DNA from: an uncultured Bacilli bacterium
Lineage (GTDB): Bacteria; Bacillota_I; Bacilli_A; RF39; UBA660
DNA length: 64,000 nt
Direction: 5' to 3'
NCBI GenBank assembly: GCA_947629265.1
Contig: CANRCZ010000002.1
Span: 6,567 to 70,566, forward strand
Positions 1 through 13,116 of the stretch are shown here, piece after piece (the stretch's first letter is position 1; every line of letters begins with the position of its first letter). The position numbers and the translations under genes were made by a program. The notes beneath the pieces are model-generated. The model did not search any database. It saw only the letters and a program-made list of their open reading frames with translations, and was not told where the DNA came from.

Positions 1-7
1 GATAAAT

Positions 8-430
8 ATGAATGAATATAAATTTGAGGATATTAAATTAGGCTTAGAACATGAGTTTAAAGTTGAACTAACACAAGAAAAAATGGATGCATTTTTAAGT
101 ATAACAGGGGATATAAATCCTCTTCATAATAACAAAGAATTTGCATTATCAAAAGGTTATGAAGATAAAGTAGTGTATGGAATGCTTACCTCATCATTTT
201 TATCTACACTAGCAGGAGTATATTTGCCTGGAAAATATAGTTTAATACATTCAGTGGACATTCTTTTTAAAAGATCAGTGTATTTAAAAGATAGTCCTCT
301 TACCATAAAAGGAAAAGTAATTGATAAAAATGACATATTTAAAGAATTTACAATAAAATATGAGATACTTAACAATAATAATGTGAAAGTAACAAGAGGT
401 ACAATGAAAGTAGGGTTGTTAGATGAATGA
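8..430 (+). CDS. MaoC-like (hotdog fold) dehydratase
   Basis: 140 aa. Hotdog/MaoC-like motifs (INPLHNN..FA..GY...VVYGML). Overlaps the start of the next ORF, so operonic. Confidence 0.5.
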   Translation: MNEYKFEDIKLGLEHEFKVELTQEKMDAFLSITGDINPLHNNKEFALSKGYEDKVVYGMLTSSFLSTLAGVYLPGKYSLIHSVDILFKRSVYLKDSPLTIKGKVIDKNDIFKEFTIKYEILNNNNVKVTRGTMKVGLLDE

Positions 431-1157
431 AAAAGTATTATTAGTAACAGGTGCATCAAGTGATATTGGAGTAGAGTTAATAAAAAATATACATCAAAAT
501 TATGACTATATAATTGCACATTACAATAATGATAAAGGTGACCTTGTAGAATTAGAAGATAAGTTAAATGATAAATTAATATTATTATCTAGTAACTTTT
601 TAGATGAAGAAGATACAAATAAATTTGTAGATACAATTATAGAAAAAGGTATAATTCCTAATCATATTGTTCATTTGCCTGCTGGAAATTGTATTAATAA
701 AAAATTTCATCAATTAAATTGGGAAAAGTTTAATAAAGATTTAAATATTGGATTAAGATCTATAACTACTATATTAATGAAATTAATACCATTAATGTTA
801 AAGGAGAAAAATGGTAAAATAATTTTTATGCTAACATCTTATACATTAAATATTCCTCCTAAATATTTAACTAGTTATGTAACAAGCAAATATGCATTAT
901 TAGGATTGATGAAATCTTTGGCTCAAGAATACGCTAGTAAGGGAATAACAGTAAATGGAATATCACCAAGTATGATAGAAACTAAATTTTTAAATAGTAT
1001 TCCAGAATTAATTGTAAAACAAAATGCTGAGAATAGCCCTACAAAAGAAAATTTAAAGGTTAATGATGTCGTTCCAACTATAGAGTTTTTATTATCTGAT
1101 AAAGCAAACTGTATAACTGGCGAAAATATTGCCATTACAAACGGCAATATAATGTAG
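423..1157 (+). CDS. short-chain dehydrogenase/reductase (SDR) family oxidoreductase
   Basis: N-terminal Rossmann motif LLVTGASSDIGVELI. Catalytic Y-x3-K (YVTSKYALLGLMKSLAQEY). Confidence 0.6.
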   Translation: MNEKVLLVTGASSDIGVELIKNIHQNYDYIIAHYNNDKGDLVELEDKLNDKLILLSSNFLDEEDTNKFVDTIIEKGIIPNHIVHLPAGNCINKKFHQLNWEKFNKDLNIGLRSITTILMKLIPLMLKEKNGKIIFMLTSYTLNIPPKYLTSYVTSKYALLGLMKSLAQEYASKGITVNGISPSMIETKFLNSIPELIVKQNAENSPTKENLKVNDVVPTIEFLLSDKANCITGENIAITNGNIM

Positions 1158-1172
1158 GAAGTAGGTATTATT

Positions 1173-2702
1173 ATGAATTTGATATCATTTATATTTGCAA
1201 TGTTTTGTATTTTAACAATATTGGTTTATTTTGTAACACCTAAAAAAATAAGATGGATAGTATTATTAATATCAAGTTTATTTTTCTTATTTTATAAAAA
1301 TTTTAATGTAGTAACAATATTACAAGCTTTAACAATATTTTTATCAGCATATATATTTGCTAGATTGATAGAAAAGTATAAAGATACACATAAATCAAAA
1401 ATATTTTTAGTAATTAGTATTTTGTTAATATTATTAGTGTTGATGTATTTTAAGTATTCTAATTTATTTTTAATAACTATAGATCATATTTGTAATATTT
1501 TGAAAATAGATTATGATTTAAAACTTGTGAGTAGAAATTCATTAATCGGTCTTAGCTATTATTCATTAATTATGATTGGATATTTAACTGATGTTTATAG
1601 AGGTAGTGTTAAAGCTGAAAAAAATATATTTAAATGTGCATTATTTATGGCATATTTTCCAATATTAAATTCTGGACCTTTTATAAAATTTGAAAATATG
1701 AAAGACACATTATATGAAGGTCATAAATTCAGCTATAAGAGAATGTGTAATGGTCTTATCAGGATAGCTTGGGGAGCATTTAAAATATTAGTTATATCTC
1801 AAAGATGTGGATATTTTGTAAATACTGTTTGGGGTGATTTAGCTAAATTTAATGGTGTATACTCAATTATTGCAGCTTTATTGTTTCCGGTAGAACTGTA
1901 TGCTAATTTTTCAGGATCAATTGATATTATAATGGGAGTTAGTGAAATAATAGGTATAGGGTTGCCGGAAAACTTTGATTCTCCATTCTTTTCAAAAACG
2001 ATGACTGAATTTTGGAGAAGATGGCATATAACATTAGGAGCATGGCTTAGGGATTATATTTTTTATCCAATTCAAAAATCTAGTATTATACAAAAGCTAA
2101 ACAAATTTTGTAAATCTAAATTTGGTAAAAAGGTTGGAAAAAAGATACCATTATTTATTTCTATGTTTATTATGTGGTTATGTATAGGAATATGGCATGG
2201 TGGAGAATATCACTATATAATTGGATCGGGAATATTACAATTTGTAATAATATTTTTAGAAGATACATTAACACCAATATCTAATAAAATAAATGATAAA
2301 TTAGGAATAAACAGAGAAACTTTTGGATATAAACTGTATCAAGTAACTAGAACATTTTTATTATTTTCATTTACTATGATATTTTTTAGAGCTACTGGTG
2401 TTGCCGAAGCTATTGAATTTATAAAGAGCATGTTTGTTTCAAATCCGTGGGTACTTTTTGATAATGAATCATTATATACAGCTGGACTTGATATGTTAGA
2501 TTTTAGAATTTTAAATATATCATTAATAGTTTTATTCGTAATTGATTATTTAAAGACTAAATTTGATGTTAGAGAAAAATTATTTTCTCAAAATATAGTA
2601 TTTAGATGGACTGTCATATTTGTTTTATTATTCTCTATTATAATATTTGGATGTTATGGCGTAGGTTATAATGCTGCTGACTTTATTTATAGGGGATTTT
2701 AG
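1173..2702 (+). CDS. MBOAT family membrane-bound O-acyltransferase (DltB/AlgI-like)
   Basis: Polytopic membrane protein carrying the MBOAT hallmark FWRRWHITLGAWLRDYIFYP with the conserved His. Confidence 0.7.
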   Translation: MNLISFIFAMFCILTILVYFVTPKKIRWIVLLISSLFFLFYKNFNVVTILQALTIFLSAYIFARLIEKYKDTHKSKIFLVISILLILLVLMYFKYSNLFLITIDHICNILKIDYDLKLVSRNSLIGLSYYSLIMIGYLTDVYRGSVKAEKNIFKCALFMAYFPILNSGPFIKFENMKDTLYEGHKFSYKRMCNGLIRIAWGAFKILVISQRCGYFVNTVWGDLAKFNGVYSIIAALLFPVELYANFSGSIDIIMGVSEIIGIGLPENFDSPFFSKTMTEFWRRWHITLGAWLRDYIFYPIQKSSIIQKLNKFCKSKFGKKVGKKIPLFISMFIMWLCIGIWHGGEYHYIIGSGILQFVIIFLEDTLTPISNKINDKLGINRETFGYKLYQVTRTFLLFSFTMIFFRATGVAEAIEFIKSMFVSNPWVLFDNESLYTAGLDMLDFRILNISLIVLFVIDYLKTKFDVREKLFSQNIVFRWTVIFVLLFSIIIFGCYGVGYNAADFIYRGF

Positions 2703-2713
2703 GAGGAAAAGTT

Positions 2714-3772
2714 ATGCGTAAATATATGAACAAATGTTATATATATATATATATATCAAGGGTTATATTATTTATCATTGTATTTTGTATGCTTTGGAAT
2801 TCTGTTTTTAAGATATTAAATGTGGATGCTAATCCTATAACTGAATTTTATAAAGAAGATAAAAATACAATGGATATTGCATATATAGGTAGCAGTAATG
2901 TGTTTATGCATTTTAATGCAACTCTAGCGTATGACAAATATGGCTTCACTACCGGTCTTTTTTCGATAGGTTCAGCACCTTTCATGACTTCAAAATATAT
3001 GATTGAAGAAGTATTAAAGTATCAGAGACCTAAATTATTTATTATAGATTTATCAACTGTAGCTACCGATTCTAATATTGTGTTTACAGAAAATAATGTA
3101 AGAAATATATCTAATTCATTCAAGCAATCAAAAAATAGAATGAATTTACTTAATGAAATGTTGAGCAAGTTAAAAGCTGATGGTGTTGAAATTGAAAAAG
3201 ACTATACCTTCTATTATCCATTTCTTTTGTATCACAATTCTTGGAAATCTTTAACTCATGAAAAACTTACTAAATCTAAAAATTATTTTAAAGGTTACTA
3301 TTTGTCAGAAAAACAAGTTGCAACAATTAGTTATTCAGATTTGCAATGGGTTGATGGAAGTGAACGATTACAAGAATATAACAATAATGTACTAATCGAC
3401 ACCTTAGAATATTTAAAGAGAAAAAATATAGAAGTTATTTTTACTGTTCCTATTAAAAATTATGATTGGCACGTCAAAAGGAAAACTAACAGAGCAATAG
3501 AAATTATAAAAAGTTATGGTTTTAATTATATTAATTTTAATGATCTTGATACGAATATAGTTGATTTTTCCACTGATTTATACGATTGGGGACATTTAAA
3601 TGTGTATGGCGCTACTAAATATACATTGTATTTTTCAAAGTATTTAAAAGAAAATTATGATTTACCAGATCATAGAAATGATAATAAATATTCATCTTGG
3701 AAAAGTGAATACGAAAGGTTTAAAATAGAATTTAATAATTTAACTAAAAAAAATTTTGATGATTTAATTTAA
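2714..3772 (+). CDS. MBOAT-partner DltD/AlgJ/DHHW-like SGNH-type O-acyltransferase accessory protein, paralog 1
   Basis: N-terminal signal anchor, then YIGSSN... and a C-terminal DLYDWGHLNVYGATKYT motif. Lies immediately downstream of the MBOAT gene. The 5' end contains a (TA)9 tract. Confidence 0.45.
   Translation: MRKYMNKCYIYIYISRVILFIIVFCMLWNSVFKILNVDANPITEFYKEDKNTMDIAYIGSSNVFMHFNATLAYDKYGFTTGLFSIGSAPFMTSKYMIEEVLKYQRPKLFIIDLSTVATDSNIVFTENNVRNISNSFKQSKNRMNLLNEMLSKLKADGVEIEKDYTFYYPFLLYHNSWKSLTHEKLTKSKNYFKGYYLSEKQVATISYSDLQWVDGSERLQEYNNNVLIDTLEYLKRKNIEVIFTVPIKNYDWHVKRKTNRAIEIIKSYGFNYINFNDLDTNIVDFSTDLYDWGHLNVYGATKYTLYFSKYLKENYDLPDHRNDNKYSSWKSEYERFKIEFNNLTKKNFDDLI
2738..2756. repeat. (TA)9 dinucleotide tract inside the 5' coding region (encodes YIYIYI)
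   Basis: Read directly: tatatatatatatatatat, in frame as tgt tat ata tat ata tat ata tca. Confidence 0.8.
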
Positions 3773-3785
3773 AGAGGGAGATAAT

Positions 3786-4835
3786 ATGAGAACAAATGTT
3801 ATATATATATATATATATAAAATATTTATATTTATAATTGTATTTATATTATTATGGAATAGTATATTCAATATTTTGTGGATAAATAAAAGTCCAATAT
3901 CACTATTTTATAAAGAACCAAAAAATTCTCTAGATATTGTTTACATTGGTAGTAGTAATGTATATGCGTACTTTAATACAACACTTGCTTATAATCAATA
4001 TGGATTTAAAACAGGTATTTTTGCAACAGATATGATGCCATTTTTGACGTATAAATATGCGATAGAAGAGTCATCAAAAACACAAAATCCAAAGCTATAT
4101 GTAATTGATTTAGCTACATCGATTGCTTCTTTAGATGTTTATAGTGAAGGTGATTTTAGAAGAACAATAGATTCTTTTAAATTTTCTAAGACTAGACGTG
4201 ATTTAATAAAATCTATGTATGAATATAAGGATTATTTAAGTTTTGAAATTAATGATATAAATGATTTTTATTTTTCATACCTTATGTACCATAATAAATG
4301 GAAGGAAATAACTGAAAGTTCGTTTAATAATGAAAAAAAATTATTTAAGGGATACTTATTTACATACTTTCAAACTAGAAAAGAAAAACATATTAAGTAT
4401 GATTGGAATTGCACTGAAAAAAAATTGATAAATTATAGCAAAGAAATACTAGAAGATTTATTAGAATATTTAAATAAAAATAATATTAATGTATTATTTA
4501 CTATACCTGTTAAAGTGTATACATTAGAACAAAATCAATATTTAAATAATGTTACCAAGATAATTGAAAAAAATGGATATAAAGTAATAAATTTTAATAA
4601 AGTTGATGATTTAAATATTGATTTTGATAATGATTTATATAATGCAAGTCATTTAAATGTATATGGCGCTACTAAATATACATTGTATTTTTCAAAATAT
4701 TTAAAATCTAATTATAATTTGCCTGATCATAGAAATAATGAAAAATATTCATCTTGGAAGAGTGAATACGAAAGGTTTAAAACAGAATTTAATAATTTAA
4801 CTCAAAGAAATTTTGATGAATTGTTAGATAATTAG
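3786..4835 (+). CDS. MBOAT-partner DltD/AlgJ/DHHW-like protein, paralog 2
   Basis: Tandem paralog of the preceding ORF with the same C-terminal motif (DLYNASHLNVYGATKYTLYFSKYLK). The 5' end contains a (TA)10 tract. Confidence 0.45.
   Translation: MRTNVIYIYIYKIFIFIIVFILLWNSIFNILWINKSPISLFYKEPKNSLDIVYIGSSNVYAYFNTTLAYNQYGFKTGIFATDMMPFLTYKYAIEESSKTQNPKLYVIDLATSIASLDVYSEGDFRRTIDSFKFSKTRRDLIKSMYEYKDYLSFEINDINDFYFSYLMYHNKWKEITESSFNNEKKLFKGYLFTYFQTRKEKHIKYDWNCTEKKLINYSKEILEDLLEYLNKNNINVLFTIPVKVYTLEQNQYLNNVTKIIEKNGYKVINFNKVDDLNIDFDNDLYNASHLNVYGATKYTLYFSKYLKSNYNLPDHRNNEKYSSWKSEYERFKTEFNNLTQRNFDELLDN
3800..3819. repeat. (TA)10 dinucleotide tract inside the 5' coding region of the paralog (encodes IYIYIY)
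   Basis: Read directly: tatatatatatatatatata. Same relative position as in paralog 1. Confidence 0.8.
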
Positions 4836-4968
4836 TATAAAGATTTTTTTATAAAAATAATGTAAGAAATATTTCTGGTTAATTTAAATAACATAAAGAT
4901 AGAATAAATTTGTTTGGTGAATAGATATATACTATTAGTTATCAATTGCAATCTATATCAATAAATTA

Positions 4969-5286
4969 TTAATCTTTATTTTCAAATATTGCTACTGCGA
5001 TTGTATATTTCTTTTCATGGGAAATAGAAATATTAATATTGCTATTGTTAGAGCAATATGGTTTTCCATCTTTATCATTCAATATTTCAAAGTCTAAGAA
5101 ATTATATGTCTTAGTATTAGGCAGTGCCTTCATAATAGCTTCTTTACCAGCTATTCGGCCACATAAATATAGATATCCTTTGTTTTTAAATTCTAATTGT
5201 TCATTTTTAGTTAAAACTAGATTAATAAATTCTTCATTCTTGTCAACTAGTCTTTCGTTTTCTACAATATCACAACCAATATTCAT
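4969..5286 (-). CDS. acpS: holo-[acyl-carrier-protein] synthase (4'-phosphopantetheinyl transferase)
   Basis: N-terminal MNIGCDIVENER (GxDxxExxR motif). ISISHEKKYTIAVAIF matches the SxSHxxxyAxA region of AcpS. Length 105 aa. Confidence 0.65.
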   Translation of the reverse strand: MNIGCDIVENERLVDKNEEFINLVLTKNEQLEFKNKGYLYLCGRIAGKEAIMKALPNTKTYNFLDFEILNDKDGKPYCSNNSNINISISHEKKYTIAVAIFENKD

Positions 5287-5514
5287 AAAATCACTTCCTA
5301 ATCTCTATTATACTAAAAAAGTATATAAAGTAAAGTTAATATTTAATTTTCAATATAAAATAAAAATCCTTTAGTAATAATATTGGATTGTTTTCTAAGA
5401 TTTTATTAATTTATTTTACTAATAATTTTTTGTTAATATTAAAATTTATGTATGAATTATCATTTTACATAATTAGTAAATAATGTTATAATGTTTAATA
5501 TAAAGAGGTGGATT

Positions 5515-6960
5515 ATGCGAAGTAAAAAATTAAAAAGAAAAAGAATACGTATTGCAAGTATTGTAATATTTACTTTAATGGTAATAATGATGTGTATTTT
5601 TATGGGATATTTAAAATATACTAACGTTTTATCTATGAAATATTATGGAGCTATACTATTTATGTTTTTAGTAATTGTATTACTTACTATGGCTATAACA
5701 TTTAAAAAGAATATAAAAAGTGGCATTAAAATCTTTTTTGATGTAATAATGGTTATTATTACATGTTTATTGGTAGCTGGAATGTTTCCTATGAGTAAAT
5801 TAATGAACTTTATGGGAAACATTCAAGATGATAACAAAGAATATGAAAATTATTATGTTTTAGTTCTAAAAGATAGTAAATATGATAAACTAAATGATAT
5901 TAAAAATAAAAATATCGGAATTTTAAAAAGTGATGATAAAGAATATAAAAATGCTTTAGAAAAATTAAATGATACTGTAAAAACAAAACAAACAGATTAT
6001 AAAGATAGCACAGCTTTATCAGATAACTTGTTAAATAAAAAAGAAGAGGCTATATTCATTGATAGTGTTGGTTATTATATGACAGAAGAAGAAACCAGTA
6101 AATATTATGGTAAATTTAAAGTATTAGATACTATTAATATAGCAACTGAAAGCAAAATTGAAAAAGAAGATGTTAATGTTGTAAAAGAATCATTTAACAT
6201 TTATATTAGTGGTATTGATACATATGGTAAAATATCTACTAAATCAAGAAGTGATGTAAATATTATAGCTACAGTAAATCCTAAAACCAATAAGGTATTA
6301 TTGACTAGCATTCCACGTGATTATTATGTACAATTACATGGAACTACTGGATATAAAGATAAATTAACACATGCTGGTGTTTACGGAATTAATCAATCAA
6401 TTAATACTATTGAGGATTTATTAGATATTAAAATTAACTACTATATGAGGGTAAATTTTACAACATTAATTAAAATGGTAGATGTCATTGGTGGTGTGGA
6501 TATTAATTCTGATATGTCTTTTTATCCTTTATCTGATTCAACATGTTATATAAAGAAAGGTAATAATCATTTAAATGGTAAATGTGCTTTAGCATATGCA
6601 AGAGAAAGACATGCTTATGCCTCAGGAGATAGACATAGAGGACAAAATCAACAACAAATTATAACAGCTATGATTAATAAATTTACAACAAATAAATCAT
6701 TAGTTTTAAAATATAACAGTATATTTAATTCATTAGAGGGAAGTTTTCAAACTAATATGGGTACAAGTAAAATTACATCACTTGTTCAAAAACAAATTGA
6801 TTCTATGCCAAGTTGGGATATTGAATCATACAATCTAGATGGTAGTGGTAAAATGACATATACATATAGTTATCCAGGACAAAAATTATATGTAATGGTT
6901 CCATATGAAGAAACTGTAGAAACAGCTAAAACAAAAATAGACAGTTTATTACAGGAATAA
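5515..6960 (+). CDS. LytR-CpsA-Psr (LCP) family cell-envelope phosphotransferase
   Basis: N-terminal TM segments, then an LCP core (ATVNPKTNKVLLTSIPRDYYV...GVYGIN...MRVNFTTLIKMVDVIGGVDIN). Start moved to the ATG at 5515, preceded by AAGAGGTGG. The track start at 5491 has no SD. Confidence 0.7.
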   Translation: MRSKKLKRKRIRIASIVIFTLMVIMMCIFMGYLKYTNVLSMKYYGAILFMFLVIVLLTMAITFKKNIKSGIKIFFDVIMVIITCLLVAGMFPMSKLMNFMGNIQDDNKEYENYYVLVLKDSKYDKLNDIKNKNIGILKSDDKEYKNALEKLNDTVKTKQTDYKDSTALSDNLLNKKEEAIFIDSVGYYMTEEETSKYYGKFKVLDTINIATESKIEKEDVNVVKESFNIYISGIDTYGKISTKSRSDVNIIATVNPKTNKVLLTSIPRDYYVQLHGTTGYKDKLTHAGVYGINQSINTIEDLLDIKINYYMRVNFTTLIKMVDVIGGVDINSDMSFYPLSDSTCYIKKGNNHLNGKCALAYARERHAYASGDRHRGQNQQQIITAMINKFTTNKSLVLKYNSIFNSLEGSFQTNMGTSKITSLVQKQIDSMPSWDIESYNLDGSGKMTYTYSYPGQKLYVMVPYEETVETAKTKIDSLLQE

Positions 6961-7215
6961 TAAAATTAATTATCCCTGTAATAAATACCAATTATAGAAA
7001 ACGATTTTACTTTAATATAACAAATAAATACTATATAAAAGATTTATGAGTTCCTCATCAAATGTTTGTAGTTATCAAATATTTATTAAAGTTAATTTAA
7101 TAGTTGTGTTGATTTCAGTTTTTCTTTTAGTGGTGTGTCTTGATGGATGGTATCTGATATAAATAGTTATAGTTTTAAGTAATAATTATAACTTTGAATG
7201 ATAGGGTGGGTAATT

Positions 7216-8325
7216 ATGAAAAATTTAAAAGTTGATAGTAAACCAAAAAATCATCGCCAATCAAATATAGAATTACTTAGAATTGTATCGATGTTATTTA
7301 TTATAATGTTTCATTATGTATATAAAAGTGGATATACCTCACCAACATTTACATTTAATTATTTTATAGTAAAATTATTTTATATGCTTGGTGAATTAGG
7401 AGTAAATATATTTATTCTAATAAGCGGTTATTTTATGATAAAAGGTAAGTTTAGTATAAAGAAATTAATTAAATTATTATTAGAAGTAGAATTTTATTAC
7501 CTTTTTTCAGTGTTTATCGCTTCAAAACTAGGAATTTACACAGTTAGTCATACTTTTAAAGGTATATTTATGTTGTTCTTCCCAACTACTTTAAATAGGT
7601 ATTGGTTTATAACAGTTTACGTATTGATCTATATTTTAAGTCCATATCTAAATATACTAGCTAATAACATGGATAAAAAGACTTATCAAAAGTTTTTGTT
7701 TACTGTTTTATTAATATGGTGCGTGATACCAACTTTCTTTGGATTATTTTTTAACGGAACAGAATCAATGTTATATTATTCAAGATTTATCTGGCTTATT
7801 ATAATATATTTTGTTGGTGCTTATATAAGACTAAATCCTGTAAATATTTTTTCTAAAAATAATAATGCCATCATATGTTTTTCAATATCAACAGTGGCAA
7901 CTATTATAGGAATTTTAGGTTTTTATAAATTTAGAAATATTTTAGCAAATTTAGGTACAACAGAAATTGCATATTTTTGGCAACCAAATTCCATTTTAAT
8001 GTTTTTATTAAGTATTTCATTATTCACTATTTTTCTAAAGGTAAAAATAAACTATAATTTTATAATAAATAAATTAGCATCTACAACTTTAGCAGTCTAC
8101 ATGTTACATGATGGTATCTTGCAAGGGTATATTTGGAATAATATTTTTAAAACAAAAATGAGGCTCGGGGGGGGGTATTCTATAATTCATATATTGATTG
8201 CAACCGTAATAATATACCTAGTTGGCAGTGTAATAGATTTAATAAGACAATTCTTATTTGATAACGTACTAGATAGATTGATAAATAACTTTAAATCAAA
8301 AAAAGCATCAGTGCAACTTAATTAA
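7216..8325 (+). CDS. Acyltransferase_3 family (OatA/OafA-like) integral membrane O-acyltransferase
   Basis: NHRQSNIELLRIVSMLFIIMFH and about 10 TM segments are typical of acyltransferase family 3. ATG at 7216 follows GGGTGGG. Contains an in-frame G9 tract at 8167-8175. Confidence 0.6.
   Translation: MKNLKVDSKPKNHRQSNIELLRIVSMLFIIMFHYVYKSGYTSPTFTFNYFIVKLFYMLGELGVNIFILISGYFMIKGKFSIKKLIKLLLEVEFYYLFSVFIASKLGIYTVSHTFKGIFMLFFPTTLNRYWFITVYVLIYILSPYLNILANNMDKKTYQKFLFTVLLIWCVIPTFFGLFFNGTESMLYYSRFIWLIIIYFVGAYIRLNPVNIFSKNNNAIICFSISTVATIIGILGFYKFRNILANLGTTEIAYFWQPNSILMFLLSISLFTIFLKVKINYNFIINKLASTTLAVYMLHDGILQGYIWNNIFKTKMRLGGGYSIIHILIATVIIYLVGSVIDLIRQFLFDNVLDRLINNFKSKKASVQLN
8167..8175. repeat. poly-G tract (G9) inside the acyltransferase ORF
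   Basis: aggctc GGGGGGGGG tattc encodes RLGGGY. The same aggctYggggggggg context recurs at 40858. Confidence 0.85.
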
Positions 8326-8433
8326 AGTTTCAATATGCTTTTTATTTTTATGCAACAATATGTAGATATTGTTAATTTATAGATATGTAAATGATACAAT
8401 AAACTCATTTAATAGATAGATGGAGATGGATTT

Positions 8434-10800
8434 ATGAAAATTAGTAAAATTAAAATAGATAGTTCATTTGCAAAATTTGAAGATGGTGAAATATTAGATT
8501 TATCAACTTTATCAGAAAAAAATCAAAATCGGGTTTTTATATATGGCAGTAATGGTGCTGGTAAAAGTTCATTGTCAAAATTATTTTCAATTGGTAATAT
8601 GAAATTAGATGGCAATTTAGATTATCAAAATAGACTATCTTTATTAAAAACTACCAATAATGATAATCCATTATCTGTAAAAATATATTATAATGAAGAA
8701 GATTATACGGAATTTAATAATGATATTATAAGGCCCAAAAGGATACCTGTTTTTAATAAAGACTATATTGATTCTAAAATAACCTATCAAACTGATTTTA
8801 AAAATAATAAATTTGATCAGCAAGAATCTACATATAGTATTGAATTAGAATCAAAAACCAATTATCATGAAAAACTGAAAGAATTTACAAGAAATAAAGA
8901 AAAATTAGATGAATTAGAATTAAAAATCAATAATGAAATAATGTCAGGCATTAATGAAACAACTAAGGATACAGGTACAACTAAGGCAAATAAGATATAT
9001 ATGGAGGAGTATAATTTTACACAGTTTATAAGTCTGTCAGCTAAATCAATTCCAACTAGTAATTTAGATAAATTAAGATTAGAGCATCAGCAGTTCATTA
9101 AAAATTTAAAAGATTTAACAGAAGAAGATATCATAGAATTTGAAATAAAAGAATTTGATAAAGAAAATAAAATTCAAAAAAGAATAGATGAAATAAACAA
9201 AACAATAAAATTTAATGAAGATAAATCGAAATTAGATTTTGTTAAAAAATATTTAGATAGATATAGTGATGAGGAAAGAGAGTGGAAGATAAAAGGAGCT
9301 ATTTTATTAGGTGATGCTGATAAATGCCCATTTTGTGAACAAAATATTAAAGATATTGGTATAGTTGAATCATACAAGAATTATGTTAATAGCAGTACTA
9401 AAAAAGTAGAAAATTTTATCGAAGGGCAAATTGAATTTTTTAAAAATAGTAATAACGTAGTTAATAACTATATTGAAGGATATATTTTAAAGGCTAAAAA
9501 TGTAGATAAAATTTTTAATACTAATATAGCTGAAGACATTGATTTATTTATTAAAGAATTAATGAACTTTAACAAGCGTGTAATCGAACTTTTAAATAAA
9601 AAATTAAATCCTGAAAATCTATATATTGATTGTTCTGATATTTTAGAGGAGATAGATTTTAATTTGTTTGAAGAATTGGAATATAACTATAATAATCTAG
9701 TAAAGAAAATAGAAGATATTAATAGAAAAGTTACTAGTAATAAAAACGAAAAAGATAAAAGAAATAGAGAATATTTAAGGACAACTGGTAAATATATTAT
9801 CTATAATAAAATTAGGGATGAAATAAAAGAGTATAACTCATTAAAAATTAAAGATACTTTATTATCATCAGAAACTGGAGAATTAAAATCAAAATATCAA
9901 AAAGATATTCAAGAAAAAAATGAACTGTTAAAAACTATCAATAGTATATTAGATGAATTTAATATTACTAATTATAGAGTTGATGAAAATTTTGATATAT
10001 TTTTAAATGATTATAATGTAAGCACAAATGTAGAAAAAATGCTAAGTGATGGTGAAAAAAACATGATAGCATTTGCATTATTTGCAGCAGAACTTAAATT
10101 GCTGTATACAGAATCCGAGAAAGAAATTATATTTATTGATGATCCTATTACATCTGTTGATTATCCTAATTTATACAATATATATAATTACCTTGTAAAT
10201 ATAATTGAAGAAAATAAATCATCACAAATTTTTATTACATCACATAATATCGTATTTTTAAATATGTTAAAATTTAGATATAGTAAAGAAGCTACATACT
10301 ATAAACTATACACAAAACACAATAAGACTTATATTAAAATGGATGATTGTAAGTATGATTCTATTTACTTGGAAAAATTAAAAGAAATTTATAAAATTTC
10401 TAAAGAAAATGAAATAGATAAAAATCAAAAATTATACATTCATAATTATTGTAGGTATGTACTTGAAACACTATCAAGATTTGAATATCCAGATCATAAT
10501 AATGATGCCGATTCTTCTAGAGAATACATCAAAAATCTAAAGAAAGATATTAAAAATGGAAAAGTAAATTTATCAATAAGTGAAAAGAAATTAGATAGTT
10601 TATTAAATATCATTAATAAAGGTTCACATGCAACTTTAGATGTTGTTCATGATGGTGAAATATTTACGGATGAACATTATATTAATGCTTGTAAACAGGT
10701 AATAAATATAATTCATGCTAAGTATGAGGGACAATATCAATTATTAACTAATTCATATTCATCTGATGATTCAAAGAAAGAAAAAATTTCAAAAAAATAG
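8434..10800 (+). CDS. RloC-like Rad50/ABC-type ATPase with C-terminal anticodon-nuclease-like region
   Basis: Walker A GSNGAGKSS, a long coiled-coil insert containing a CPFC (CxxC zinc-hook-like) motif, an ABC signature-like LSDGEK, Walker B IIFIDDP, then a C-terminal region with Arg/Glu/His candidates (NYCRYVLETLSRFE ... KGSHATLD). This 788-aa architecture matches RloC/PrrC. Confidence 0.5.
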   Translation: MKISKIKIDSSFAKFEDGEILDLSTLSEKNQNRVFIYGSNGAGKSSLSKLFSIGNMKLDGNLDYQNRLSLLKTTNNDNPLSVKIYYNEEDYTEFNNDIIRPKRIPVFNKDYIDSKITYQTDFKNNKFDQQESTYSIELESKTNYHEKLKEFTRNKEKLDELELKINNEIMSGINETTKDTGTTKANKIYMEEYNFTQFISLSAKSIPTSNLDKLRLEHQQFIKNLKDLTEEDIIEFEIKEFDKENKIQKRIDEINKTIKFNEDKSKLDFVKKYLDRYSDEEREWKIKGAILLGDADKCPFCEQNIKDIGIVESYKNYVNSSTKKVENFIEGQIEFFKNSNNVVNNYIEGYILKAKNVDKIFNTNIAEDIDLFIKELMNFNKRVIELLNKKLNPENLYIDCSDILEEIDFNLFEELEYNYNNLVKKIEDINRKVTSNKNEKDKRNREYLRTTGKYIIYNKIRDEIKEYNSLKIKDTLLSSETGELKSKYQKDIQEKNELLKTINSILDEFNITNYRVDENFDIFLNDYNVSTNVEKMLSDGEKNMIAFALFAAELKLLYTESEKEIIFIDDPITSVDYPNLYNIYNYLVNIIEENKSSQIFITSHNIVFLNMLKFRYSKEATYYKLYTKHNKTYIKMDDCKYDSIYLEKLKEIYKISKENEIDKNQKLYIHNYCRYVLETLSRFEYPDHNNDADSSREYIKNLKKDIKNGKVNLSISEKKLDSLLNIINKGSHATLDVVHDGEIFTDEHYINACKQVINIIHAKYEGQYQLLTNSYSSDDSKKEKISKK

Positions 10801-10928
10801 TTTTTATTAAAATATTTAATAAAAATTTTACAAAATAACACCAATATTAACCAATAATAAAAAATAACAAACGCATACATAAAAATTTCAAAAAATTACA
10901 ATATAATTAATATAGGAAGTGAGTTAGT

Positions 10929-11046
10929 ATGTTTTTGATTGGATTGATTATTGGTTTATTTATAGGTAGTTTTATAACTCTAATATTATATTCATGTATG
11001 GTCATTTCTAAAGAAGCTGATGAATGTATAGATAAAATGAATTAGT
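10929..11046 (+). CDS. small hydrophobic membrane peptide (39 aa)
   Basis: Not in the track. MFLIGLIIGLFIGSFITLILYSCMVISKEADECIDKMN, with an AGGAAGTGAG SD. Confidence 0.2.
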
Positions 11047-11094
11047 ATTTTAATACCATAATTAATATGATATAATTGCTTAGAAGGAGCATTT

Positions 11095-11541
11095 ATGAAA
11101 AAAATTATATCATGGATATTATTGTTAATTTGGTTGTTGATCATTTTTTATCTATCAAACCAAAATAGTGATATATCAGGTAATAGTAGTGGCAAAATAT
11201 TAAAAAATATTTTAAATTTTATCTATGACTTATTTAATATTAATACAAATAGTATAGACAGTGTTTTAGAAATAATACATAATCCTGTTAGAGAATTGAT
11301 GCATACATTTGAATACTTAATTTTAGGATTATTAATCTTTAATCTACTAAGAGTATATAATGTAGATAACAATATCATAATTATATGTATTTTATTATCC
11401 TTTTGCTATTCTATATCAGATGAAATTCATCAAATATTTGTAAAAGGTAGAACTTTTGAATATTTAGATATAATAATGGATACATTAGGTAGTATCTTAG
11501 GCACCTTAATAGGATGTAAGCTAATGAAGCGTAACTTATAA
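11095..11541 (+). CDS. VanZ family membrane protein
   Basis: Four TM segments and the ISDEIHQIFVKGRTFEYLDIIMDTLG motif typical of VanZ-like proteins. Confidence 0.5.
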   Translation: MKKIISWILLLIWLLIIFYLSNQNSDISGNSSGKILKNILNFIYDLFNINTNSIDSVLEIIHNPVRELMHTFEYLILGLLIFNLLRVYNVDNNIIIICILLSFCYSISDEIHQIFVKGRTFEYLDIIMDTLGSILGTLIGCKLMKRNL

Positions 11542-11563
11542 ATTACGTTTTTTTGTTTCTAAA

Positions 11564-12058
11564 CTACCTGTACCCACCATTAACCAAAGATGTATTTTCC
11601 CGAGCAATCAAAGCATTACTATCCAATTTTTTAATAATATCGATCAACTTATTAGTTTTATACCTATGCGTAATAATCAAATGCGTATATATCTTCGTTT
11701 CTAATCCATCGCTTTTTAACGTCGTAACCGCATAACCATTACCACGGATTTGGCTAGATAAATCCCACTTAGTAATACATATAATCAAATTAGTCCCTAG
11801 CGCCAATTTCTCCTCAACCTTGCTACCTAAATAAGAACCAAAAGCCGAACCAAGCGCAAAAGCAAACAATTTAAAAATATCCTGATCAATATCCACAATA
11901 ACCAAACTAGTACCAAGTAACCAGACCATCGTATTAGCAAACTGTAATAGAGCACCCAGTACTTTCTTATTATTATTGATGATGATAATCCTTAAAGTCG
12001 CTAACATATTTTCAAGTATTTTAGAGCCAAAAATAAATAAGTATAGTAATATATTCAT
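11564..12058 (-). CDS. UPF0316/DUF2179 family membrane protein
   Basis: Layout and motifs resemble Bacillus YebE-type UPF0316 proteins (GSKVEEKLALG..., C-terminal ...NGGY). Confidence 0.4.
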   Translation of the reverse strand: MNILLYLFIFGSKILENMLATLRIIIINNNKKVLGALLQFANTMVWLLGTSLVIVDIDQDIFKLFAFALGSAFGSYLGSKVEEKLALGTNLIICITKWDLSSQIRGNGYAVTTLKSDGLETKIYTHLIITHRYKTNKLIDIIKKLDSNALIARENTSLVNGGYR

Positions 12059-12154
12059 ACTTATATTATTACAATAATTAAGATAAATTATACAACTTTA
12101 AAAAAAGTATGTTAAAATTAAAAAAAATATGTTACAATTATCCTAGGTGATAGA

Positions 12155-12694
12155 ATGAACATAGAAACCGTTTTTGAAACTTTAAAAAATAATCAGAATA
12201 TCGATGATGACTTTAAAGAACTAATCCAAGAATTGATAATCATCTTTACTAAGTTTTTTCCAAACGTCGATTTAACCAACCTAAACAATAAACTAAAAGA
12301 CTTAAAGATTATCAAAGCTAATAAATTGATCAGTAAAGATATTATCGACTATAACGTTGTAAATAACGAACTTATCTTTAACCTAGAAGAAATAATGAAA
12401 GATTACGATCTAAGACATGTTCTAATGCATGGATTACTTAGAGTTATAACATCCTACGATAATACCTTTGGTTTCGATCAAAACAACCGCTTTACAGCCT
12501 TAAATATAGGTTATACCGAAATAATTACGAACTTTATTATCGGTAACGAAAGTATCTTAACCTTGTTTGATGATGAGGTTATCGCTACCAACTTAATAGC
12601 GGATGTCGTAGGTCACGATGTTTTATTTCAAGCGTACTTTACTAACAATGCTAACTTATTAGCAAGTACTTTAATCGATAAAGGAGTTGAATAA
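12155..12694 (+). CDS. hypothetical protein
   Basis: 179-aa ORF with SD-like GGTGATAG upstream. No recognisable motif. Confidence 0.3.
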   Translation: MNIETVFETLKNNQNIDDDFKELIQELIIIFTKFFPNVDLTNLNNKLKDLKIIKANKLISKDIIDYNVVNNELIFNLEEIMKDYDLRHVLMHGLLRVITSYDNTFGFDQNNRFTALNIGYTEIITNFIIGNESILTLFDDEVIATNLIADVVGHDVLFQAYFTNNANLLASTLIDKGVE

Positions 12695-12998
12695 AATGAA
12701 ATCAAAAACAATGGATTTAATGAATGCTAATTACCTATCAAGAAAATGCGATAACAATAACGTATATCGTAGTACCTTAGGTGATATCGAAAAGATAATT
12801 ATCGATGCCTATATCAAAAATCCTCATACCGAAGAAGAGGTTAATAACTTTGAAGCTAATCTGTATGGAAATAGTAGCATGTTTGACGATGATATCCATA
12901 AATCTGTCGATAACGTTTATCCATATTGGGACGTCGCTAAAACCAATATTCAAACCTATAGCTATGACACAGAACAAAGTCTAGGAAGAACTATTTAA
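12687..12998 (+). CDS. hypothetical protein
   Basis: 103-aa ORF overlapping the end of the previous ORF. No recognisable motif. Confidence 0.25.
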   Translation: MNKMKSKTMDLMNANYLSRKCDNNNVYRSTLGDIEKIIIDAYIKNPHTEEEVNNFEANLYGNSSMFDDDIHKSVDNVYPYWDVAKTNIQTYSYDTEQSLGRTI

Positions 12999-13116
12999 TA
13001 TGATCAAAAAGTAACTTTACATTTAAGTATAGTTATTTTTATATTGTCAATATTCGAATTATGTTTTAAAAAGATACATATATTATGGTATAATAGTAAT
13101 GATTGGAGAGAATTAT

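Follow-up and report, generated by a model that had tools for sequence, protein, structure and literature searches.

A stand-alone RloC-family gene with an altered HEPN motif in an uncultured gut Bacilli bacterium

The subject of this work is a solitary gene in a stretch of 64,000 nucleotides from an uncultured Bacilli bacterium (contig CANRCZ010000002.1, positions 6,567 to 70,566); the whole stretch is called the window below, and coordinates refer to it. The gene is one open reading frame (ORF) at 8434..10800 of the forward strand, stop codon included, and it encodes, from an ATG start, a protein of 788 amino acids. Judged from its sequence, the protein is homologous over its full length to GkaRloC, which has been characterised by experiment; it belongs to the known RloC family as a divergent member and does not make a new type of system. 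GkaRloC is an anticodon nuclease that excises the wobble nucleotide, responds to zinc and is gated by a DNA-dependent ATPase (PMC2610378, PMC3458546). It is 804 residues long, and alanine at any one of its triad residues R692, E696 and H737 abolishes both activity and toxicity (PMC2610378). We think it probable that the window gene encodes a stand-alone, self-regulated anticodon nuclease of the RloC family: the ABC-ATPase site is intact, the CxxC hook is conserved, and the triad of Arg, Glu and His has been kept in a HEPN-fold domain that would carry the predicted nuclease activity.

How close is the relation to GkaRloC? The window protein and its 16 closest homologs were aligned as a clade of 17 members at 44-56% identity (alignment A4), and a scan of the GTDB reference genomes with this alignment gave 351 relatives. 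A Lentibacillus protein (L063) is collinear with the supplementary rows of GkaRloC, as read by optical character recognition, at 38-50% identity, and its triad spacing is the same as that of GkaRloC. With L063 as query, a protein of 804 residues was retrieved (P0029) that has R, E and H at 692, 696 and 737, CAFC at 288-291, and a match of 87-100% to the same rows of the 2008 supplement. Because length, triad positions and rows agree, P0029 is GkaRloC (YP_146738). A BLASTP comparison of the window protein with P0029 gives E=2e-14 and 29% identity and is significant only over 535-687, from the signature motif to R-x3-E. Profile comparison by hhalign of A4 with a GkaRloC-anchored alignment (A6) extends over 683 columns, residues 31-780 against 31-785, at 99.9% and E=8.8e-32, with an identity between the two proteins of only ~23%. 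An independent alignment of canonical members from Streptococcus, Lentibacillus and Bacteroidota (A3) gives E=2e-32 in the identical register, and the intact S. sanguinis homolog is collinear with the window protein over 30-755 by BLASTP (E=2e-25). Of the features by which Davidov & Kaufmann (2008) defined RloC, the ATPase motifs, a helical insert with CxxC, the Arg/Glu/His residues, size and full-length homology are found here, and the second HEPN Arg, taken up below, is not; the published size range is 658-897 residues (Table 1, PMC2610378), and 788 falls inside it.

The ATPase motifs, which like all parts of the gene lie on the forward strand, align with their GkaRloC counterparts at posteriors of at least 0.99. 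They are the Walker A or P-loop sequence GSNGAGKSS (residues 38-46, 8545..8571), in which G38, G43, K44 and S45 are invariant in the clade and K44 pairs with K44 of GkaRloC (posterior 1.00); the ABC signature LSDGEK (537-542, 10042..10059), in which S538, G540 and E541 pair with S541, G543 and E544; the Walker B sequence IIFIDD (565-570) followed by the D-loop PITSVD, together IIFIDDPITSVD (565-576, 10126..10161), in which D569/D570 pair with D571/D572 and D576 with D578; and the H-loop or switch QIFITSHN (598-605, 10225..10248), whose H604 pairs with H606 (posterior 1.00). The Walker B and D-loop follow the same logic as their PrrC counterpart, YVFIDD216...SSLD222, and PrrC H251, the counterpart of H604, is essential (PMC3025547).

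Between Walker A and the signature, a helical insert of coiled-coil type splits the ABC head (residues ~139-507, 8848..9954). An AlphaFold2 model of the protein (predicted local distance difference test, pLDDT, 80.9) has helices at 139-180, 309-361, 365-390 and 409-507. On the strength of this model the insert is real, with one long helix (139-180) before the CxxC turn and another (409-507) after it, and the two helical arms would pair in antiparallel fashion. The turn between the arms holds the predicted zinc-hook motif C298-P-F-C301 (9325..9336), all four residues of which are invariant in the clade; C298 and C301 pair with C288 and C291 of GkaRloC (posterior 0.998-0.9999), and upstream W284 and G288 pair with W273 and G277. 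The best Foldseek matches in the PDB are Rad50 (7zr1_C, 3.9e-8), SMC heads with coiled coils, including those of cohesin and condensin, and LmuB.

The C-terminal domain (residues ~644-787, 10363..10794) is of the all-alpha HEPN nuclease type found in anticodon nucleases, and it has the four-helix up-down HEPN fold. Its candidate catalytic residues R674-x3-E678 (10453..10467) lie inside N671-Y-C-R-Y-V-L-E-T, with R674 paired to R692 (posterior 0.98), E678 to E696 (0.999) and N671 to N689; N671, R674, E678 and T679 are invariant in 19/19 aligned sequences. The HEPN His motif is N725-I-I-N728-K-G-S-H732 (10606..10629), where H732 pairs with H737 (0.87), N728 with N733 and S731 with S736. The D-loop residues S574/D576 and the N728-x3-H732 pattern are present as well. 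Across the 17 members of the clade, the residues of Walker A, CPFC, LSDGEK, Walker B, the D-loop, H604, R674/E678 and N728/H732 are all invariant, which indicates purifying selection and excludes chance matches. The original prediction had named GSNGAGKSS, CPFC, LSDGEK and the Walker B sequence in this ORF, had taken them for the RloC architecture of a Rad50-type ATPase with a CxxC hook and a C-terminal nuclease, and had pointed to Arg, Glu and His candidates near the C-terminus. The motifs are where it placed them, the register with GkaRloC bears out the architecture, and the triad is present on alignment; a fully canonical nuclease site is not, as the HEPN Arg is replaced by Asn725.

Profile searches return more than generic SMC or AAA families. 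Pfam AAA_13, the family that includes PrrC, matches residues 32-735 (3e-33), a span that takes in the nuclease region. PADLOC matches the protein in full length to PDC-S06, a candidate single-gene defence system with 13 sub-models (PDLC04886-04898): sub-model PDLC04898 is hit at 4.9e-48, query residues 9-772 against 6-748 of 752, and seven more sub-models at E<=2e-15. Other PDC-S06 sub-models are matched at 1e-203 to 1e-274 by RloC-like proteins of Gka type and from Marinobacter and Actinobacillus (about 1e-205 for the Gka type), so that PDC-S06 covers Gka-type RloC and its relatives under another label; a literature search found no experimental work on PDC-S06. Like the window protein, whose PADLOC PrrC match is confined to residues 485-684 (4e-11), these proteins match PrrC only partially (~1e-12). 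There is also a profile match to PHROG 2801, an unannotated family. NCBIfam gave nothing specific, a PDB sequence search gave generic P-loop matches only and no close structure, and no PrrC or RloC structure surfaced in the PDB sequence or fold searches. A word index of a large protein database gave access to 18 homologs, of which the closest has 56% identity, and one of the homologs carries the JGI label 'wobble nucleotide-excising tRNase'. A phmmer search of 1.84 billion cluster representatives gave 685 matches at E<=1e-3, 65 at E<=1e-10 and 20 at E<=1e-30; the last two counts indicate that the immediate clade is small. Other defence systems were considered as closer relatives and set aside: Lamassu LmuB, PARIS AriA and Septu PtuA are matched far more weakly than PDC-S06 (4e-9, 1e-9 and 0.014 against 5e-48) and their partner genes are absent, and of the recently described tRNA-cleaving HEPN defence proteins DARNA and HepS, neither is an ABC-HEPN fusion.

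Several points weigh against taking the gene for an RloC anticodon nuclease with a role in defence. The best PDC-S06 score of the window protein is 162 bits, compared with 676-910 bits for other members on theirs, so that its clade has no sub-model of its own and forms a divergent branch. In the His-motif block the posterior is 0.80-0.88, below the rest of the GkaRloC alignment, and the pLDDT of the model is <50 at residues 730-740. In the passages of the RloC papers drawn on here (PMC2610378, PMC3458546, PMC3874168), anti-phage protection by RloC itself is proposed and not directly shown. The window offers no mobile-element or defence neighbours, so that the case for a defence role is one from homology. 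Finally, the column of GkaRloC R730 and PrrC R349 holds Asn725 in the window protein (posterior 0.80), and it is variable, with no conserved Arg, in the 17-member clade.

What does an Asn at this column mean? In EcoPrrC, R349 and N352 are essential besides R320, E324 and H356; R349A, R349K and R349Q are all inactive, so that R349 is strictly essential, and R349 and N352 are stated to be conserved in RloC (PMC3025547). Their counterparts in GkaRloC are R730 and N733, in the HEPN motif R-x2-N-x3-H, and Arg is invariant at this column in the canonical clades (R736 in A3, R730 in A6). The window protein keeps the Asn of the motif as N728, and lacks the HEPN R-x4-6-H motif of Anantharaman et al. 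(2013), as N-I-I-N-K-G-S-H has no Arg 5-7 residues before H732. At position -3 from the His the clade has Lys729 almost without exception, with Arg in one member. It is plausible that Lys729, at -3 instead of the canonical -7, supplies the missing positive charge: the two positions are four residues apart, which is one helical turn if the segment is helical, so that the basic residue could plausibly have shifted in compensation. The genome scan gave 33 distinct motif variants. At -7, 10 of them have Arg, 10 have Lys and the remaining 13 some other residue; at -3, R or K is present in several clades ('INRESH', 'INKGSH', 'INRGSH'). Arg at -7 is thus no universal feature of the wider family, and its presence in 10/33 variants, together with the recurring R/K at -3, suggests a recurrent natural state of RloC-like proteins and gives no indication of decay. 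The distance from the triad Arg to the His is also unusual, being 57-59 residues in the clade (58 in the window protein) against 41-55 elsewhere, 45 in GkaRloC and 36 in PrrC. It is the longest of the 33 variants and implies an insertion of ~13 residues between the catalytic motifs.

In a clade without the canonical HEPN Arg, activity and target could differ from those of GkaRloC. One speculative picture, which we regard as unlikely, is that the clade is an RloC variant with a rewired HEPN site, in which the basic residue has moved by one turn, from Arg at -7 to Lys at -3, with the insertion of ~13 residues, and in which the RNA target or the cleavage mode is possibly other than wobble excision. 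If true, nature would have provided in this clade a test of which residues perform catalysis in the PrrC/RloC nuclease site, whose structure is still unsolved. A broader alternative, to which we give perhaps one chance among several, is an RloC-derived protein with a changed HEPN function: the RNase may be dead, leaving a Rad50-like DNA sensor or an RNA-binding protein, or it may have another RNA target or chemistry, such as a single nick or the cutting of mRNA or rRNA. The strict need for R349 in PrrC gives this alternative its force, as Asn725 sits at the very column that is invariant in the canonical clades, and the insertion, with its record Arg-to-His spacing, and the divergence of the clade from all PADLOC sub-models fit it as well. 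Nevertheless, N671, R674, E678, N728, S731 and H732 have stayed invariant at 44-56% identity, which argues for retained catalysis, the residues found at -7 and -3 over the motif variants do not look like decay, and ATPase and hook are intact.

Two other alternatives fare much worse. Very improbable is an SMC-family ATPase of the Rad50/SbcC or Lamassu LmuB kind that acts on DNA with a separate nuclease and whose C-terminal domain is a mere structural appendage: the best PDB folds and the weak LmuB and AriA matches of PADLOC point that way, but those two E-values are ~39 orders of magnitude weaker than that of PDC-S06, the gene has next to it no Mre11/SbcD, LmuA or other nuclease gene (it is flanked by Acyl_transf_3, a 38-residue ORF and VanZ), and the C-terminal HEPN fold with its conserved triad is a region absent from Rad50, SbcC and gp46 (PMC2610378). 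We give hardly any credence to a PrrC-type nuclease that is silenced by, and dependent on, a type I restriction-modification (R-M) enzyme encoded elsewhere in the genome, for although PrrC is partially matched and possible R-M regulation in trans is discussed by the RloC authors (PMC2610378), the PrrC model reaches no further than the C-lobe and a portion of the nuclease domain, just as it does with Gka-type RloC, the protein has 788 residues with a hook insert of ~370 residues which PrrC lacks, the 64 kb of the window hold no hsd or R-M component, and AbaRloC is described as activated by inducers of double-strand breaks (DSBs) in an R-M-deficient host (PMC3874168).

If the gene does encode a stand-alone, self-regulated RloC, how might the protein work? 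By analogy with the RloC literature, two protomers would pair through a zinc-coordinated hook and ATP-engaged heads, and in the resting state hook and ATPase would hold the HEPN RNase silent. DNA ends or DSBs, arising from genotoxic stress or phage attack, may then stimulate the DNA-dependent ATPase and so turn the RNase on; cutting of the tRNA anticodon loop would stop translation and curtail phage growth under genotoxic stress. With such an internal switch the gene would need no R-M silencer beside it, in keeping with its solitary position. AbaRloC responds to DSB inducers even where the host lacks R-M, and cuts tRNA-Glu and tRNA-Gln (PMC3874168).

The surroundings of the gene add little to this picture. 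A Shine-Dalgarno sequence GGAG, read from the sequence, lies on the forward strand at 8422..8425, 8 nucleotides 5' of the ATG, and in the upstream region nothing resembling a consensus promoter exceeds the shuffled background. The gene is stand-alone, as RloC usually is (PMC3458546): among the PADLOC and Pfam matches of the 53 ORFs of the window there is no hsd gene or other R-M component, so that its placement outside a type I R-M locus, part of the original prediction, holds good for the window, as do the neighbours then named, an acyltransferase (Acyl_transf_3, 7198-8325) and VanZ (11095-11541). The same prediction had also seen a small defence islet in low-GC, AT-rich flanks, which we do not find. 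The guanine-plus-cytosine (GC) content is 21.9% in the RloC-like gene, 21 and 19% in its intergenic flanks, 23.9% in the acyltransferase gene, 21.7% in VanZ and 24.4% in the LCP gene, so the flanks are no different from the surrounding first 12 kb, which has 21-24% GC against a window mean of 27.5%. At the borders of the gene there is no integrase, att-like repeat or terminator, the only direct repeats being AT-rich chance ones, and no tRNA gene lies within 13 kb.

Between the RloC-like gene and VanZ, at 10929-11045 of the forward strand, lies a hydrophobic ORF of 38 residues (MFLIGLIIGLFIGSFITLILYSCMVISKEADECIDKMN) with its own ribosome-binding site. Its Pfam match to DUF3789 is borderline (E=1.6e-4, 21.8 bits against a cutoff of 22); it is called as a gene in a second sample (L091), and it stands beside no RloC-like homolog. 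DUF3789 peptides occur on mobile elements of Firmicutes, and one here would hint at a mobile origin of the segment.

The rest of the window is housekeeping in character, with a GyrA/ParC-type topoisomerase, ArgRS, GluRS, a release factor, Era/Der-type GTPases, YbeY, RecO and MurG/MurB. The second metagenome sample contains the same strain, 99.9% identical and with gene order unchanged, and an exact-sequence look-up of the RloC-like protein and MurG gave no record, while that of VanZ led only to this second sample. In 33 related loci (among L093-L172) with a MurG of 56-68% identity, murG-murB is conserved, and none of the LCP, acyltransferase, RloC-like, VanZ and DUF5698 genes is found within 10 kb; these loci offered no empty site for comparison. 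As murG-murB is kept and the upstream genes are absent in the relatives, the left part of the window (1-13000), which is also its most AT-rich at 21-24% GC, is a lineage-specific cell-surface and accessory region. On the forward strand at 12155-12998, between the DUF5698/DUF2179 gene and murG, are two slightly overlapping ORFs of 179 and 103 residues with no Pfam match, one of which has a relative of 30% identity that lies upstream of murG in just one of the related metagenome loci (L101). PADLOC matches to LeoA/LeoBC, mad2/3/8 and MzaA in the window look like cross-matches of GTPases and ABC proteins. One of the 53 ORFs matches PDC-M03B at 4.4e-62, and five further PDC-M03B sub-models; it is not among the 30 ORFs of at least 231 residues that were scanned and is hence one of the other 23. 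This ORF may be a housekeeping gene that cross-matches, or else a second gene of defence type. Matches to PDC-S33 (1.9e-24) and to two Aga_SIR2 sub-models belong to window ORFs that are likewise not located.

Where are the relatives of the gene found? The clade is limited to low-GC gut Bacilli and 'Mycoplasma sp. CAG' metagenome-assembled genomes (MAGs), and the GTDB scan places gut MAGs named 'Mycoplasma sp. CAG:776/877', 'uncultured Bacilli' and 'Tenericutes' nearest. Searches of IMG/VR, INPHARED phages and PLSDB found no clade relatives. The settings of the homologs are more eventful than that of the window gene. One (P0008) lies between KilA-N and integrase remnants to one side and, to the other, RhuM with a type II methylase and AlwI-type endonuclease, a second (P0007) adjoins an integrase, and a third (P0010) is near MTaX1, a C5-methylase and a serine recombinase; the same association with mobile elements and R-M has been reported for RloC-like ABC-HEPN proteins (PMC3710099). 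No close homolog shares the neighbours found in the window, which indicates horizontal mobility of the gene.

Some observations were made along the way. On the Lentibacillus sp. CBA3610 chromosome (L063:7600-10795) a Gka-type RloC gene lacks the N-terminal ~70 residues including Walker A; a transposase-like ORF of 292 residues directly precedes the truncated rloC, which appears to be disrupted by an insertion sequence, and NCBI annotates the locus as a 768-residue 'AAA family ATPase' (P0019). A contig binned as Bacteroides helcogenes (L019) encodes a 780-residue protein with the length and motif positions of those in Tenericutes and 'Mycoplasma sp. CAG:877' MAGs (L018, L020-L022); mis-binning of the contig is the probable reason, not a transfer across phyla. 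Many E. coli genomes carry Gka-type RloC homologs of ~798-800 residues under the label 'AAA family ATPase' (P0105-P0113, P0122; one cluster is on 145 contigs), and the AAA-ATPase of E. coli that bioRxiv 10.1101/2025.01.08.631966 flags as PDC-S06 probably corresponds to these.

Databases give this gene no label beyond 'AAA family ATPase'; the comparison provides a secure annotation at the level of residues, and it links the unnamed PADLOC candidate PDC-S06 to Gka-type RloC. It also extends RloC to an under-studied group, gut Bacilli with reduced genomes ('Mycoplasma sp. CAG'/RF39-type MAGs). It leaves the present view of tRNA-targeting defence as it was. The N-x2-N-K-G-S-H motif, and the retention of Arg in about one third of RloC-like variants, offer a modest and testable point for HEPN catalysis.

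Among known systems, Rad50, SbcC and T4 gp46 have an ABC head divided by an antiparallel coiled coil whose tip carries a CxxC zinc hook, an arrangement predicted for the window protein too; they differ in their much longer coiled coils, in their Mre11/SbcD nuclease partner, and in having no C-terminal HEPN RNase domain, while the window gene has no adjacent Mre11/SbcD gene and its product does have such a domain. EcoPrrC (PMC3025547) is similar in joining an ABC NTPase to a C-terminal HEPN-type nuclease with the Arg/Glu/His triad and an Asn before the His, and in belonging to Pfam AAA_13. It differs in its length of ~396 residues without coiled-coil or zinc-hook insert, in R349, which has no equivalent in the window protein, in lying always inside a type Ic hsd locus that silences it, in its activation by the T4 Stp peptide, and in nicking without wobble excision; the window protein is about twice the ~400 residues of a PrrC, has the insert, and is encoded outside any type I locus. 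AbaRloC of A. baylyi ADP1, likened here by description, belongs to the same family according to its authors and is the precedent for an indigenous, stand-alone RloC triggered by DSBs independently of R-M (PMC3874168), in a proteobacterial host. Closest in kind is GkaRloC. The two differ in the hook, CAFC there and CPFC here, in R730 against Asn725, in the ~13 extra residues of the window protein, and in the host of the latter, a gut Bacilli or 'Mycoplasma CAG'-type organism of ~27% GC; they have in common their length class (788 and 804 residues), their domain order, and a solitary gene without a linked intact R-M system.

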